This document shows positions 57,817 through 64,000 of a stretch of DNA of 64,000 nt, one piece after another. Under the pieces are notes generated by a model, which did no database searches, was not told the origin of the DNA, and saw only the letters and a program-made list of their open reading frames with translations. The first letter of the stretch is position 1. Each line of letters starts with the position of its first letter. Made by a program: the position numbers and the translations under genes. The stretch comes from Candidatus Buchananbacteria bacterium (lineage in GTDB: Bacteria; Patescibacteriota; Patescibacteriia; 2-01-FULL-39-33): positions 23,116 through 87,115 of the forward strand of contig JBAYJM010000001.1 in assembly GCA_041665065.1 (NCBI GenBank). Direction: 5' to 3'.

Positions 57817-57821
57817 ATAAA

Positions 57822-57852
57822 AAACCCCTTCCCACTCGGGAAGGGGTTGAGT
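57822..57852 (-). terminator. Intrinsic terminator CCCCTTCCC-gagt-GGGAAGGGG + U-run (minus strand)
   Basis: 9-bp GC stem. On the minus strand it follows the trpR-like gene and is followed by TTTTTTAT. Confidence 0.55.
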
Positions 57853-57868
57853 TTATATTTTAAAAATA

Positions 57869-58189
57869 TCAACGCAGCTCTTTCCCGATTGAGGAAGAGC
57901 TATAATGATTTATTCTTTTTGAAATTAAATTATATCCGCCGGTTCCGTTATTTAACCAAAGCGCGACACGGCTGACAGTAGTTGTGCTGACTTTTAATTT
58001 TTCGGCAATCTCACGATAGGGCATTTTCTTCTCCAAAAGCTTCACTATTTCCCAGCGCTCGCTCATTTCCTTGATTTCTTCAACCGTACAGAGGTCACGA
58101 AAAAATAACTCGCATTCTTTTGTGGTTTTTAATGATAGGATGGCTTCAAAAAGCCTGTTAGTTTGTTTGTTAAATTTAAATTGTTTCAT
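57869..58189 (-). CDS. TrpR-like DNA-binding protein (YerC/YecD family)
   Basis: 106 aa. LCTVEEIKEMSERWEIVKLL...YREIAEKLKVSTTTVSRVALWLNNGTGGY matches the YerC/YecD Trp-repressor-like family. Confidence 0.65.
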   Translation of the reverse strand: MKQFKFNKQTNRLFEAILSLKTTKECELFFRDLCTVEEIKEMSERWEIVKLLEKKMPYREIAEKLKVSTTTVSRVALWLNNGTGGYNLISKRINHYSSSSIGKELR

Positions 58190-58856: not shown

Positions 58857-59081
58857 ATTTTTTCCCTCGTAAGGCCAGGCCAAGATTTATTACTTTCATC
58901 CTCAAACTCACAAGAGCCCAGGATTTTTAATGCTTTATGGTACAAATTCTTTGTGAACGTTACTCACATTGAATACATTATTATATCATAGTTAAATCAT
59001 TTTGTCAAATATATTTGCTAAGTTTATTTAAAATAAAATAAAAAAACCGCCCCAGCAAGGGGCGGAAAATTTGATATGAAT

Positions 59082-60812
59082 TTATTTTTTCTCTGTAATT
59101 TCTTTTTTAATTCCTTCGATAAATTTTGTTAAATCCTGCGATCCAAGATCGCCTTCGCTCCTTTTGCGGACGGCGACAGTCTTAGATTCGACTTCTTTTT
59201 CGCCGACTACTAATATATATGGTGTCTTTTGTTTTTCGGCATTTCTAATTCTTTTGCCAAGCGATTCATCGCTATTATCAAATTCAACTCTAATCCCATT
59301 TTCTAAAAGAATATTTTTAACTTCTTCGCCGTACTCATTAAATTTTTCAGATACAGGGATTATAACCGCTTGAACAGGAGAGAGCCAAATTGGAAATGCG
59401 CCGGCATAATGTTCAATTAAAACTCCGAAAAATCTTTCCATTGAACCGTAAATAACGCGATGAATCATTACTGGACGTTTTTCTTTGCCATCAGAATCAA
59501 TATAATTTAAATTAAATCTTTCTGGCATATTCATATCCAATTGAATTGTTCCGCATTGCCATGTTCTGCCAATCGCATCTTTGATTTTAATATCAATTTT
59601 TGGTCCATAGAAAGCTCCATCACCCTCATTAATATCATATTCTTTTCCTGTGCTATCAAGCGCTTCTTTTAATCCATTTGTTGCCATTTCCCAAGCCTCA
59701 TCCGAGCCGATTGATTTTTCTGGGCGTGTGGAAAGTTCAAGGGAGTAAGTTAAGCCGAATGCAGAATACATTTTGTCTACTAATTTTAATACTCCAAGAA
59801 TTTCATCTTTGATTTGATCTGGTCGCATATAAATATGGGCATCATCTTGATGGAATACTCTAACTCTAAATAGCCCTGACAATACTCCTGACAATTCATG
59901 CCTATGTACCAATCCAATTTCTCCCATACGAAGTGGCAAATCGCGATATGAATGAATATCTTCGCCATACATCAACATTCCACCGGGGCAATTCATCGGT
60001 TTGATAGCATATTCCATATCATCAATCTTGCTTTCATACATATTTTCACGATAATTTTCCCAGTGGCCGGATGTTTCCCATAACTTTCGAGATAACATGA
60101 TTGGAGTTTTGATTTCATCATATCCGGCTTCTCTATGTGCTTCTCTCCAAAAGTTTAGTAGCTCATTCCAAATGATCATTCCTTTTGGTTTGAAAAAAGG
60201 AAAACCAGGACCTTCATCATGGAAAGAAAATAATTCTAATTCCTTGCCTAATTTTTTATGATCTCTTTTTTCAGCCTCTTCTAAAAGTTTTAAATAATCA
60301 AAAAGTTCTTGCTTGGTGGCAAACGCAGTGCCGTAGATCCTTTGCAACATTTTATTTTTTTCATCGCCACGCCAATATGCTCCGGCAATTTTCATTAATT
60401 TAAAAATTCCCAGTTCTTTGGTGGTTTCAACATGAGGGCCTCGGCATAAATCTTCAAATTCTCCGACTTTATAAAAACTAACCATTGTTTCGCCGCCTTT
60501 TTCTAGGTCTTCAATCAGCTCTTTCTTGTACGGCTGGTCTTTAACTCTTTTTAAAGCTTCTTTAATCGGCAGTTCTGTTTTGGTAAATTCTAATTTTTTC
60601 TTGATGATTTCTTCCATTTTCTTTTCGATCTTTTTCAAATCTTCGGGAGAGAAAGTCTTATCGCCCAAATCAAAGTCATAGTAAAAGCCTTCTTCAATTG
60701 TCGGGCCGATTGCAAATTTTACATCTTCAAAAAGCTCTTTGACGGCATAAGCCATGATGTGAGAAGTTGAATGCCTTATTTTATCCAATTGTTCGTTAAT
60801 TTGTTTTGCCAT
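59082..60812 (-). CDS. thrS: Threonyl-tRNA synthetase (lacks the N-terminal TGS extension)
   Basis: 576 aa. HSTSHIMAYAV editing-domain motif, class II catalytic core, C-terminal anticodon-binding domain. Confidence 0.9.
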   Translation of the reverse strand: MAKQINEQLDKIRHSTSHIMAYAVKELFEDVKFAIGPTIEEGFYYDFDLGDKTFSPEDLKKIEKKMEEIIKKKLEFTKTELPIKEALKRVKDQPYKKELIEDLEKGGETMVSFYKVGEFEDLCRGPHVETTKELGIFKLMKIAGAYWRGDEKNKMLQRIYGTAFATKQELFDYLKLLEEAEKRDHKKLGKELELFSFHDEGPGFPFFKPKGMIIWNELLNFWREAHREAGYDEIKTPIMLSRKLWETSGHWENYRENMYESKIDDMEYAIKPMNCPGGMLMYGEDIHSYRDLPLRMGEIGLVHRHELSGVLSGLFRVRVFHQDDAHIYMRPDQIKDEILGVLKLVDKMYSAFGLTYSLELSTRPEKSIGSDEAWEMATNGLKEALDSTGKEYDINEGDGAFYGPKIDIKIKDAIGRTWQCGTIQLDMNMPERFNLNYIDSDGKEKRPVMIHRVIYGSMERFFGVLIEHYAGAFPIWLSPVQAVIIPVSEKFNEYGEEVKNILLENGIRVEFDNSDESLGKRIRNAEKQKTPYILVVGEKEVESKTVAVRKRSEGDLGSQDLTKFIEGIKKEITEKK

Positions 60813-60816
60813 ATTT

Positions 60817-61359
60817 TTATTTTAATTTTTTATAATCACTTTTTAACATTGCCATTATTATCTCATCCCAAAATCTTCCGTATCGATATATGCTTTGTCT
60901 TTTTATTCCCTCTTTTTTTAATCCGCATTTAGCATAGCATTTAATGCCACCTATATTTCCCTCATAAACAGATAAGCCAAAACGATTAAGTTTAAGAGTG
61001 TTAAAAGAATATTTTATTATTGTTTTTAAAACGTCTTGGCCATATCCTTTATTCCAATAATTTTTGTCTCCAATCATAATGCCCCATTCAGTTTTTTTAT
61101 TTTCTTTGCTTAGTGAATGCAGATCTGTACTGCCAATATGGACTCCGTCTTTTGTATAGATCGACCAAAGCACTTGCTCTTTATTTTCAGCAATTTTTTT
61201 AATGTACTGTTTTTCTTTTACAAGAGTCAAGCCTTTGTTTTGCCTGCCTAAAAATTTTATAACTTCTTCATCCTGGAACCATTTTACAAAGCTTGGCGCC
61301 TCTTTAAGGTTGATTGGTTTTAAAATAATTTTTTTGCCTTTTAAAATTGGACCGTACAT
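60817..61359 (-). CDS. GNAT N-acetyltransferase (RimJ/RimL-like)
   Basis: 180 aa. N-terminus KKIILKPINLKEAPSFVKWFQDEEVIKFLG and core GYGQDVLK are typical of ribosomal-protein-acetyltransferase-type GNATs. Confidence 0.65.
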   Translation of the reverse strand: MYGPILKGKKIILKPINLKEAPSFVKWFQDEEVIKFLGRQNKGLTLVKEKQYIKKIAENKEQVLWSIYTKDGVHIGSTDLHSLSKENKKTEWGIMIGDKNYWNKGYGQDVLKTIIKYSFNTLKLNRFGLSVYEGNIGGIKCYAKCGLKKEGIKRQSIYRYGRFWDEIIMAMLKSDYKKLK

Positions 61360-61366
61360 ATCATTT

Positions 61367-62118
61367 TTAATTTTTATTTAAAGTTTTTATTGCTGCAACA
61401 AACTTAGCATAAAATTTTTGAGTAATATATTTCGCCGCCTTTCTTAATTCGTTTAAGTTGGGAAAATTACTAGGGTCAAAATTCTGTGCATCTTCTTTGT
61501 CCAAATTTATTTTATAAATTATATCATCTGGTTCAATGTCAGCCTTTCCATATTTGCCTAGGCCATAGTATACCTTTTCATCATAAGGACTTTCATGATC
61601 GGATCTTATTATTAGAAACGTTGATCCTGTTTCGATTAGTTTGTCAATAATCTGCCCTGCAGTTTGAGAGTCGCCATCACCAAGGCTTCTTATGTCCCAG
61701 CCCATACTTTCAAGAAAAAATTTTATTATACTATCGCTAAAATCTTCTATTAAATGTCTTTTTACTTCTGGATCAATATCTTCTTCTTTTTGAATATGGC
61801 TTAAAGCTTCACTGACGGTGTAGCCGATACTACTCGCTCTTTTTATTAAGGCAGGGTGATTTTTGATTATAATTTTCTCATCTTCCTCTCTTAACAAATT
61901 ATAAATATTAGCTATGGCTACCGCGTCTCCGGCTTCAATTCCTTCTGATGCCTCTCTGTCGGCCTGCTCTTTAGTTGTTAAATGTCTTAATCCGAGGCTA
62001 TTTTCATGGATAAATAATAAATCATCAAATTCAAGTTCAGGCCCGTCTTTATAATCTTGATATTCGGGGTCGTCTATACGCTCTTCGGTTGGCTCTCTTT
62101 TAGAAAGAAATTCATTCA
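61367..62118 (-). CDS. Hypothetical acidic protein, first gene after the T-box leader
   Basis: About 250 aa. ATG at 62116-62118 immediately follows the T-box terminator U-run. Confidence 0.45.
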
Positions 62119-62121
62119 TAG

Positions 62122-62295
62122 TATTAAAATAAAAAATCTCCCATCCCAATTATACGCTAATTATAGCATATTATTGGGACGAGAGATGTTCCCGCGGTTC
62201 CACCCAGATTTCCTGCATGTGCAGGACACTTTATTAAATAAGCTTAGTCCGCCGAAGCGGATCCGTATGGAGAACAGTTGGTGGCTGTTCCAATT
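62122..62295 (-). ncRNA. T-box riboswitch leader (ultrashort Stem I; putative Thr specifier ACC)
   Basis: The minus-strand RNA contains the T-box antiterminator consensus AAUCUGGGUGGAACCGCGGGAA (reverse complement of 62189-62213). A terminator CUCUCGUCCCAAU...AUUGGGAUGGGAGA + UUUUUUAUUUU follows. Upstream hairpin GGAACAG-CCACCAA-CUGUUCU has ACC followed by A in the loop. UUCG-capped helix CCGC-UUCG-GCGG and Stem III-like CCUGCA-ca-UGCAGG are also present. Confidence 0.65.
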
Positions 62296-62379
62296 GCTGT
62301 ACTTAAATTATTATAAAAAAAGCCCAAAAAGTCAAATGAACCTTGTTTTTATGCCTCATTTTTGCTAATATCAATTATT

Positions 62380-64000
62380 ATGGATTACACAATAATTAAA
62401 GTAAAACAGCAGATAAAAGAGGCGGTACAAAAAGCTTTGGGCCAGGAAATTGACCAAAAGCATATAGAAATAGGAGTTCCGCCGGAAAAAGATATGGGGG
62501 ATTTGGCAATTCCTTGTTTTTATTTTGCAAAATTGCTCCGGCTTTCTCCAAATAGAATAGCCGAAGAATTAAAAAATAAAATACGGCCAGTAGGTTTTAT
62601 TGAATCTGCCAACAATGCCGGACCCTATTTAAATATCATATTAAATAAAAAAGTCCTGGCTCAAAAGGTTTTAAATGAAATCAGTAAGAAAGGCGAAAAA
62701 TTTGGCAGCTTAAAGTCTGACAAAGAAAAAATAATGATTGAGTATTCTAATCCCAATACTCACAAAGAATTTCATATCGGCCATAGTAGAAATGCGATTT
62801 TGGGAGCAAGCTTGGTTAATGTTTATAAATTTGCCGGCAAAAAAGTTATCCCTGTAAATTATATAGGCGATATCGGATCGCATGTGGCTAAATGCCTTTG
62901 GGCTTTGGAGAAATTCCACAAAGACGAGCCTCTGCCCGAAAATAAAGGAAAATATTTGGGAGGAATTTATGGCGAAGCGGTGAGAAGAATTGATGAGAAT
63001 ACAGAGCTCAAAAAAGAAACTGACGAGGTTCAGCAAAAATTGGAATCAGGCGATAAATATTGGATGGCGCTTTGGAAAAAAACAAAAGCATGGAGCATGG
63101 ATGAGCTGAAAGAGATTTATAAATTATTAAATGCAAAATTTGATAAGATTTTTTTTGAAAGCGAAGTGGAAAAGCCCGGCAAAAAAATTGTGGCTGAGTT
63201 AATGGAGAGGGGAATTGCAGAAAAATCCCAGGGAGCGGTAGTAATCAATTTGGAAAAATATAATTTAAGAACTCTTTTACTTCTAAAGTCAGACGGTTCG
63301 TCTCTATATTCCACAAAAGAGTTGGCTCTTGCCCAGTTAAAATTTGATAAGTATAAGATTGATAAGAGCATAGTCATTGTCGATAATCGCCAGGGTTTTT
63401 ATTTTCAACAATTTTTTAAGACATTGGAAATAATGGGATTTGATAAAAAAATGGAGCATATTCCCTATGAATTTGTCACCCTAAAGGATGGCGCAATGTC
63501 ATCGCGATCTGGCAACATTGTCCCTTTTGAAGATTTTTTTGAAAAAGTTGTTGAGTTGGCAAAAGCTGAAACACAAAAGAGGCATCAGGATTGGAACGGG
63601 GAAAAAATCAGCGATGTGTCCCAAAAAATCGCCTTGTCTGCCATTAAATTCAACATGATAAAAACAAATAACAGTAATATTATTGTTTTTGATGTTGAAG
63701 AGGCATTAAGTTTTGACGGATTCACGGGGCCTTATTTGCAATATACTATCAGCAGGATAAATAGCATTCTTAAAAAAGAATCTCCAAAAGGAGAAATTGA
63801 TTTTGCAAAGTTGGAAAATCTACTAGAAAAAGAATTGATTTTAAAGGCTTCGAATTTTCCGGAAATAATTGCTCAGTGCCAAAAAGAAAATCAGCCTAGC
63901 ATTTTAGCTAAATACTTATTCGAATTGGCAAAGCTGTTTTCCAACTATTATCAAAATATCCCAATTTTAAAATCCGAACAAGAAACCAAAAAGGCAAGAT
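62380..64000 (+). CDS. argS: Arginyl-tRNA synthetase (3' end lies outside the window)
   Basis: Not in the ORF track because no stop falls within the window. N-terminal Add-1 domain, class I HIGH motif (HKEFHIGHSRNAILG), catalytic core continuing to position 64000. Confidence 0.85.
   Translation, partial: MDYTIIKVKQQIKEAVQKALGQEIDQKHIEIGVPPEKDMGDLAIPCFYFAKLLRLSPNRIAEELKNKIRPVGFIESANNAGPYLNIILNKKVLAQKVLNEISKKGEKFGSLKSDKEKIMIEYSNPNTHKEFHIGHSRNAILGASLVNVYKFAGKKVIPVNYIGDIGSHVAKCLWALEKFHKDEPLPENKGKYLGGIYGEAVRRIDENTELKKETDEVQQKLESGDKYWMALWKKTKAWSMDELKEIYKLLNAKFDKIFFESEVEKPGKKIVAELMERGIAEKSQGAVVINLEKYNLRTLLLLKSDGSSLYSTKELALAQLKFDKYKIDKSIVIVDNRQGFYFQQFFKTLEIMGFDKKMEHIPYEFVTLKDGAMSSRSGNIVPFEDFFEKVVELAKAETQKRHQDWNGEKISDVSQKIALSAIKFNMIKTNNSNIIVFDVEEALSFDGFTGPYLQYTISRINSILKKESPKGEIDFAKLENLLEKELILKASNFPEIIAQCQKENQPSILAKYLFELAKLFSNYYQNIPILKSEQETKKAR

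Follow-up and report, generated by a model that had tools for sequence, protein, structure and literature searches.

Four classes of T-box riboswitch are listed in PMC10482949: Class I, which has both a long Stem I and Stem II; Class II, that of glyQS, with a long Stem I and without Stem II; Class III, translational, in which a short Stem I carries the specifier in an apical penta- or hexaloop and Stem II is required; and Class IV, also translational, with a Stem I of intermediate length. According to the same source, tRNA binding is augmented by a platform, by an S-turn, or by both. A long Stem I is generally required by transcriptional T-boxes (PMC7583486), and whether any T-box works without a kink-turn (K-turn) is posed there as a question. 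The previously described T-boxes with an apical-loop specifier, the ileS leaders of Actinobacteria, are all translational (PMC7583486, PMC10482949). Here a T-box leader upstream of thrS is described from a 64-kb stretch of a Candidatus Buchananbacteria genome (contig JBAYJM010000001.1, positions 23,116 to 87,115; hereafter the window). It is found at about 62300-62126 on the minus strand. On one side is argS (plus strand, ATG at 62380), and on the other a minus-strand open reading frame (ORF) of 250 codons whose ATG is at 62119, and not at 62118 as given in an earlier note made from the sequence. The leader appears to be an architectural variant of the T-box that does not match the described classes and is conserved across several lineages of the candidate phyla radiation (CPR). 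Coordinates are those of the 64-kb window, the leader elements are on its minus strand, and labels of the form L0xx denote related loci that were fetched.

Identification of the leader

The T-box motif GGGUGGAACCGCG has a single occurrence in the window, at 62205-62193 on the minus strand, where 0.09 are expected by chance; GGGUGGNACCGCG is likewise present as one copy per 64 kb, with a chance expectation of 0.09. The segment CUCGUCCC is common to antiterminator and terminator, and thus the two folds are mutually exclusive, as had been proposed in the earlier note together with the T-box consensus on this strand.

The Rfam T-box model RF00230 matches 62172-62371 (minus strand) with 52.6 bits and E=1.7e-9. 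The 3′ half of this alignment, consisting of AAGUG, Stem III, the AA dinucleotide and the antiterminator, has a high posterior probability. The 5′ half is spurious, being forced onto promoter DNA and the start of argS, and the true Stem I/P2 region is treated by the model as an insertion. The score is low because the model fits the 3′ half only. Thus the scan, which the earlier note had proposed as a check, is favourable in its E value and in the canonical discriminator half, but not in its bit score, for which the gathering cut-off is 93 bits.

The complete leader folds much better than shuffled sequence (z = -6.8), and no second T-box was found in the 64-kb window. Features of the T-box superfamily that are present include an antiterminator with the UGGNACC bulge, a flanked Stem III, a G.U wobble, a mutually exclusive terminator, and a cognate specifier followed by a purine. 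The observation of a T-box leader is confirmed, and the interpretation given in the earlier note is largely supported. Not seen at that time were the helix designated here P0, the four-way junction that it closes, and the transcriptional output.

Structure of the leader

The elements are listed in Table 1. The 5′ domain is a four-way junction of P0, Stem I (P1), P2a and P2b, in which P0 encloses the three hairpins. The distance from the start of P0 to the end of the antiterminator is about 123 nucleotides (nt). Transcription probably starts near A62300, about 8 nt 5′ of P0, and with the promoter at 62335-62307 such a start is more likely than the extent of the leader to 62379 that had been proposed. 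In the window, as in most relatives, the promoter lies right up against P0, and argS begins at 62380; there is therefore no room for a longer Stem I, and a longer Stem I upstream was rejected as a candidate.

A Stem I of 7 base pairs (bp) with the terminal loop CCACCAA had been predicted. The hairpin and its loop are as described, but the conserved part is 6 bp, and the seventh pair of the window leader, a G.U, is not kept in the relatives. The Stem III-like helix and the UUCG helix (P2b) that had been reported upstream of the antiterminator are both located, and both covary. The UUG of the 5′ junction strand may pair with the YAA of the CYAA strand; only the alternation of G-C and G.U with CCAA and CUAA points to such a pairing.

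In the antiterminator the variable base of the T-box bulge is A62199. The wobble G62195.U62179 at the base of helix A2 is the steric-sensor pair, and it is a G.U in 13/13 leaders. The terminator fold is about -32 to -38 kcal/mol, compared with -5.5 kcal/mol for the antiterminator. Since the terminator is far stronger, the default state is "off".

Table 1. Elements of the T-box leader and of the genes downstream, in window coordinates.
Feature	Position	Strand	Remarks
Promoter, sigma-70-type	TTGACT 62335-62330; AATAAT 62312-62307	-	17-nt spacer; 10/12 consensus matches
P0	AGC 62298-62296; GCU 62243-62241	-	Closes the four-way junction; minimum free energy fold and covariation
Junction strand AAUUG	62295-62291	-	GAUUG in 11/13 relatives; AUUG invariant
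Stem I (P1)	62290-62272	-	GAACAG/CUGUUC, 6 bp; heptaloop CCACCAA at 62284-62278
Specifier ACC (Thr codon)	62282-62280	-	Followed by conserved purine A62279; ACCAA in 13/13 leaders
P2a, UCC-AUAC-GGA	62271-62262	-	Minimal hairpin in the position of Stem II; no internal loop, no S-turn
P2b, UCCGC-UUCG-GCGGA	62261-62248	-	Plain hairpin in the position of Stem IIA/B; not a pseudoknot
Junction strand CUAA	62247-62244	-	CYAA in relatives; followed by the 3′ strand of P0
A-rich linker	62240-62227	-	Ends in AAGUG (62231-62227), an RRRxG purine string 5′ of Stem III (motif as defined in PMC7583486)
Stem III, UCCUGC-ACAU-GCAGGA	62226-62211	-	Followed by AA 62210-62209
Antiterminator	62205-62176	-	Helix A1 GGG/CCC; bulge UGGAACC 62202-62196; helix A2 GCGGG/CUCGU
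Intrinsic terminator of the leader	Hairpin 62186-62137; U-run 62136-62126	-	U-run UUUUUUAUUUU; 5′ arm reuses CUCGUCCC
250-amino-acid acidic protein	61367-62119	-	First gene; isoelectric point 4.66
GNAT acetyltransferase	60817-61359	-	PF13302 (Acetyltransf_3); 180 amino acids; start 7 nt past the preceding gene
thrS, threonine-tRNA ligase	59082-60812	-	576 amino acids; TIGR00418, 732 bits vs cut-off 384; start 4 nt past GNAT
Intrinsic terminator after thrS	59065-59047	-	Ends the operon

Covariation of the helices

Two alignments were used. Alignment A1 covers the Stem I region only, and alignment A2 covers the complete structure of 13 leaders and was built by hand and helix-trimmed. It should be noted that A2 was fitted to the model and is therefore biased towards the structure; A1 alone is natural and gap-free. 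In A1 all 6 pairs of Stem I change on both sides, and 94.9% of cells pair, compared with 27-53% when the partners are slid. Double changes are found in 36 cells as against 10.7 in shuffles, and the observed value is attained in 0/500 shuffles. Neither AUUG nor ACCAA varies in this alignment. The proposed reading of the ultrashort Stem I loop as ACC (Thr) followed by a purine is borne out by the invariant ACCAA, by the compensatory changes in Stem I and by 12 homologous leaders.

In A2 97.8% of cells pair, versus 33-45% with slid partners; both-side changes are present in 21 of the 28 pairs, and there are 112 double-change cells versus 32.5 in shuffles. The five variable helices, P0, P1, P2a, P2b and Stem III, covary. 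P0 pairs in 48/49 cells (13 leaders), and its three junction-proximal pairs all change on both sides (3/3). The same is true of the counted pairs of P2b (4/4, with 67/67 cells paired) and of Stem III (5/5). No variation is seen in helix A1, in three of the four counted A2 pairs (the first to the third) or in the G.U at the A2 base, and the antiterminator is invariant in 13/13 relatives with the exception of one C-to-U change and one insertion.

Independently, RNAalifold, run on an unguided MAFFT alignment, recovers the antiterminator, Stem III and Stem I, the last with a loop of 7 nt. P0, P2a and P2b were missed because the full-leader MAFFT alignment misaligns the variable middle domain. Minimum free energy folds of single sequences display the four-way junction in 6/13 leaders. 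If P2a is taken to include three flanking pairs, no linker nucleotides are left between Stem I, P2a and P2b. The length of P2a ranges from 2 to 9 bp, with 2-3 bp in the window, L002, L087 and L095, and 8-9 bp in L004, L097 and L086.

Related leaders and their distribution

Relatives were gathered by a genome scan with threonyl-tRNA synthetase (ThrRS), by a scan of metagenomes for the pattern CACCAA..AAGTG..GGGTGGAACCGCG, and by contig look-ups of ThrRS homologs. Twelve further leaders have the same architecture (L002, L004, L084, L086, L087, L089, L091 and L093-L097), with covarying helices, so that the comparison with thrS leaders of related genomes that had been suggested gives a positive result. 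Their contigs are of the Buchananbacteria, Campbellbacteria and Parcubacteria type, and the source names include Campbellbacteria, Parcubacteria and "Patescibacteria group". All 12 leaders are upstream of thrS, and the ThrRS sequences are 44-85% identical to that of the window. Thus the proposed fit between the specifier and the thrS gene two genes downstream holds in the window, where thrS is identified by TIGR00418, and in the relatives. With two leaders of a second subtype included (L011 and L085), thrS is downstream in 15/15 leaders.

In L093-L096 the layout is argS, the divergent leader, and thrS immediately after. Only in L002 is a GNAT gene (an ortholog, 56% identity) present between leader and thrS, and the 250-amino-acid gene is found at the leader in the window alone (0 relatives). 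Since the leaders of the relatives directly precede thrS, the 250-amino-acid gene and the GNAT gene are lineage-specific insertions into an ancestral leader-thrS unit.

A terminator hairpin of -20 to -41 kcal/mol with a U-run of 4-8 U is found in all 13 leaders, and none is placed to mask a ribosome-binding site. The -10 hexamer of the best promoter-like site ends 6-13 nt before P0 in 11/15 leaders, although the match to consensus varies. The RF00230 scores of the relatives are 33.5-56.5 bits, all under the cut-off. The pattern scan also picked up two false positives, which were rejected: the glyQ T-box L083, whose specifier is GGC, and a stretch of coding sequence, L090.

Several leaders outside the main group, or unusual within it, were also observed. 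L004 (3827-3871) has an insertion of ~36 nt in the T-box bulge, between UGGAA and CC, but is otherwise a typical member. It folds into two hairpins, UCCCGA-GCAA-UCGGGA and CUUCGGC-UAAA-GCCGGAG, and the close relative L097 is without it. To our knowledge no insertion at this position has been described. L011 (3482-3690) and L085 (449-650), which are Moranbacteria-like, represent a second ultrashort subtype: the K-turn is UGA...GA, the stem has 4 bp, the loop AYUCACCAA has 9 nt, and there is no Stem II; ACCAA is thus present in both. They probably carry a pseudoknot of the IIA/B type (AAGUU/AACUU in L011). In L011 a small Cys-rich ORF is found antisense, between the terminator and thrS. In the Magasanikbacteria-like loci L098 (3780-4000) and L099 (3680-3900) Stem I is short, of intermediate type and without a platform, with ACC-A placed in an internal loop; L098 has in addition a large insertion in helix A2. 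These two leaders may be steps of a reduction series from leaders of the Firmicute type. By eye, the leaders of L098, L099, L011 and L085 likewise end in a hairpin and a U-run.

Comparison with described T-box classes

With a Stem I of 19 nt in total, the window leader is without an internal specifier loop, an AG bulge and a distal elbow-binding platform. P2a of the window-type leaders has no internal loop and no S-turn (AGUA/GAA signature). A IIA/B pseudoknot or F-box is also absent from these leaders: the loops of P2b are unconserved and there is no complementary stretch downstream. Tandem G.A pairs are impossible, and no canonical K-turn is detectable; the invariant AUUG/CYAA strands are situated at the equivalent place.

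The Class III ileS T-boxes of Mycobacterium and Nocardia (PDB 6UFG and 6UFM, per PMC7583486) are similar in that they have a short Stem I without a platform, a specifier with adjacent purine in an apical loop, three abutting helices, and a canonical Stem III with a UGGN-bulge discriminator. The likeness to actinobacterial ileS leaders that had been remarked upon therefore extends to the short Stem I and the apical specifier, but not to the output, which in Class III is sequestration of the Shine-Dalgarno sequence and in the window an intrinsic terminator. Further differences are the heptaloop, compared with loops of 5-6 nt in Class III (PMC10482949); the lack of an S-turn Stem II, a IIA/B pseudoknot and an F-box, and the apparent lack of a GA-type K-turn; the extra helix P0, which gives the four-way junction; and the association with Thr, thrS and Patescibacteria rather than with Ile, ileS and Actinobacteria.

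Class I leaders of Firmicute thrS genes share the gene with the window leader, and a UGGA bulge is present in all those fetched. The ThrRS of Firmicutes and that of the window are about 60% identical. The Firmicute leaders beside the nearest non-CPR ThrRS homologs score 97-134 bits, compared with 52.6 bits for the window. In the leader of Caloramator (L009, 134 bits), whose alignment was read residue by residue, the ACC-A specifier, the AGUG before Stem III and the antiterminator/terminator logic are the same, and the base of Stem I, GC-GAU-GA...AA-GCU, resembles AGC-AAU-UG...AA-GCU of the window. In L009, nevertheless, Stem I is long and contains an internal specifier loop, an AG bulge and a distal platform, and there are a GAA/AGUA S-turn and a CGUUA F-box pseudoknot; the window leader has none of these. 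Class II glyQS leaders are comparable in being transcriptional, in having no Stem II S-turn, and in relying on a GC-rich codon-anticodon duplex. They differ in that the Stem I of glyQS is still long, with its K-turn and elbow platform, and the linker is single-stranded, whereas the window has a Stem I of 6 bp and two hairpins in the linker region; the glyQ leader L083 serves as a contrast.

tRNAs with complementary anticodons form loop-loop complexes through these anticodons. By analogy only, the heptaloop is similar to an anticodon loop: it has 7 nt, with Y at position 1, the triplet at positions 3-5 followed by the purine A, and a further A at position 7. Position 2, however, is C in 8/13 leaders, as opposed to the invariant U33 of the anticodon loop.

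For T-boxes with a short Stem I, the searches behind TBDB were confined to Actinobacteria and to hits of the Rfam model; the leaders described here score below the Rfam cut-off. No T-box description for Patescibacteria/CPR, for a four-way junction or for a truncated Stem I was found in open-access literature, an absence that is no proof. The combination of tRNA-Thr reading by a single small loop with transcription termination likewise appears to be without a T-box description in that literature.

Proposed mechanism and alternative explanations

The leader is very probably a T-box riboswitch specific for threonine, by which read-through of transcription into the operon of the 250-amino-acid protein, GNAT and thrS is controlled. 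In the proposed mechanism, RNA synthesis would begin ~8 nt before P0 and the 5′ domain would fold as the P0/Stem I/P2a/P2b four-way junction. The heptaloop Y-Y-ACC-A-A, which resembles an anticodon loop (Y32, R37, A38), would then present ACC-A to the GGU anticodon of tRNA-Thr, and pre-organisation of the loop together with two G-C pairs might replace the absent auxiliary contacts. The 3′ end of uncharged tRNA-Thr (U73-CCA, implied by UGGA) would pair with the bulge and hold the weak antiterminator against the terminator, so that read-through by RNA polymerase would express the three genes. A charged tRNA could not stabilise the antiterminator, and RNA polymerase would stop at the U-run. It is possible, and is put forward here only tentatively, that these leaders represent a fifth T-box class, the smallest natural one, terminator-based and spread across Parcubacteria-type Patescibacteria, which would select tRNA-Thr by an anticodon-loop-like heptaloop alone, without platform, K-turn, S-turn or pseudoknot.

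Several observations weigh against this interpretation. The window leader scores below the RF00230 gathering cut-off. No tRNA-Thr gene was found in the window, in 20 Patescibacteria loci, in all 100 loci scanned with ARAGORN, or in the 10 kb past the left end of the window; the scans yielded only tRNA-Glu and unrelated tRNAs, and there was no EF-Tu gene that could serve as an anchor. Transcriptional T-boxes generally need an elbow platform, and leaders with a short Stem I need Stem II (PMC7583486, PMC10482949). On these terms, capture of tRNA at sufficient speed through a codon-anticodon contact of 3 bp is not accounted for. The leader is lost repeatedly: the close relatives L003 and L092 (ThrRS 77-81% identical) are without a T-box leader, and it is therefore dispensable. 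In addition, weak promoter-like sites are present within the GNAT gene, from which transcription of thrS independent of the leader could follow.

The T-box might not be truly minimal, in that P2a and P2b could be working equivalents of Stem II and the IIA/B pseudoknot that dock next to Stem I and brace the codon-anticodon duplex, as in the ileS leaders of Actinobacteria, which would make the leader a Class III-type decoder joined to a terminator. Both are kept as helices in 13/13 leaders, their abutment with each other and with Stem I is as in the described array of stems I, II and IIA/B, and replacement of the pseudoknot by a plain hairpin brings only a sixfold loss (PMC10482949). With the spread in length of P2a, with loops that are unrelated, and with no internal loop and no AGUA/GAA signature, a fixed docking geometry is however hard to reconcile, and the P2a/P2b region is left unaligned by the Rfam model, as an insertion; such bracing is regarded as rather unlikely. 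That the leader is instead a decaying relic, a constitutive partial terminator without tRNA sensing, is suggested by its loss in L003 and L092, by the drastic reduction of Stem I and by the low Rfam score. This is very improbable: compensatory changes are seen in five helices, and no variation is found in ACCAA, UGGAACC or the G.U pair among leaders whose ThrRS sequences are as little as 44% identical to that of the window, a constraint across divergent contigs that is not expected of a relic.

Within the invariant ACCAA, CCA (Pro) and CAA (Gln) are both also contained, and either could in principle be the specifier for another tRNA. This has very little probability, given that thrS is downstream in every leader, that ACC occupies positions 3-5 of the loop with an A after it, in agreement with the specifier rule, and that the Firmicute leader L009 uses ACC-A and has the UGGA bulge common to all fetched Firmicute thrS T-boxes. 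Translational control through masking of the ribosome-binding site would be in line with the actinobacterial short-Stem-I T-boxes, the described apical-specifier leaders being all translational (PMC7583486, PMC10482949), and a GGAG is found within the 3′ arm of the hairpin. The GGAG is however 18 nt from the ATG, a long GC-containing hairpin directly followed by 4-8 U is present in every member, and the end of thrS has the same design; control of this kind is just as hard to credit. As to the plus-strand ORF 62057-62368 (103 amino acids), its frame is open from a TTG start, and the RNA features would be coincidental if the region coded for it. It is open only mechanically, as a spurious ORF in the sense of the earlier note; it has no NCBIfam match, its frame runs into the start of the minus-strand gene, and across relatives the substitutions are paired at the RNA level and the changes in helix length would shift a reading frame. 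The probability that it is a gene is close to nil.

Genes downstream and at neighboring loci

The 250-amino-acid protein has no match in Pfam or NCBIfam, in agreement with its earlier description as an uncharacterised acidic protein. A word-index search returned only the protein itself, but an exhaustive HMMER search gave 64 remote homologs, and it was thus rejected as an orphan. A homolog at locus L100 shows no linkage to thrS. Nothing was found in PDB by Foldseek or by a profile search of PDB, and the single-sequence AlphaFold2 model is uninformative (predicted local distance difference test score 37). For the second gene, described earlier as a RimL-like acetyltransferase, the assignment to the GNAT family (Acetyltransf_3) stands; a specific relation to RimL is not supported, the best NCBIfam match being PseH, below cut-off. 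No minus-strand terminator is found between the leader and its genes until 59065, and the 250-amino-acid gene, GNAT and thrS are probably co-transcribed.

ThrRS of the window and of CPR relatives (about 572-590 amino acids) is without the N-terminal TGS domain, which is present in several non-CPR homologs of about 630-808 amino acids. The nearest non-CPR relatives, with about 60% identity, are from Clostridia and Desulfobacterales. Bacterial-type ThrRS sequences with 61-65% identity (P0071, P0092 and P0104, from L010, L033 and L081) are also found on contigs that bear the labels Nanoarchaeota, Woesearchaeota, Nanobdellota or Methanosarcinales. These are either mis-binned CPR contigs or the result of gene transfer into DPANN archaea, and no T-box was detected on L010, L033 or L081.

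Just past the thrS terminator, at 58980-59008 on the minus strand, there is a perfect extended promoter, TTGACA-17-TATAAT with TG in front. Further along the same strand a strong terminator, CCCCUUCCC-GAGU-GGGAAGGGG-U6 (57818-57888), follows a TrpR-family gene (57869-58189), and this terminator has weak matches to Rfam Phe_leader and PyrR. In L003 (2897-4001) and L092 (2895-4001) a minus-strand gene of about 244-275 amino acids that belongs to no known family is situated between argS and thrS. The isoleucyl-tRNA synthetase adjoining the locus in L001 (1906-5328) and L095 (1-1057) has a PF00300 histidine-phosphatase domain inserted in its catalytic domain and measures 1136-1140 amino acids, compared with 959-1009 in L092-L094 and L096.

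Implications

The requirement of transcriptional T-boxes for a long Stem I platform, by which tRNA is quickly captured according to recent reviews, contrasts with the present conserved, covarying class, which apparently has no platform and still uses a terminator. Having scores below the Rfam cut-off, the class is missed by standard Rfam annotation, and such leaders are liable to be taken for a spurious ORF, as exemplified by 62057-62368. If the mechanism works as predicted, recognition of tRNA by a T-box would be far simpler than has been believed, and the leader would offer a compact module for structural work and for engineered tRNA-responsive switches. It would also mean that the ultra-small, amino-acid-dependent bacteria of the CPR sense the charging of tRNA-Thr directly.

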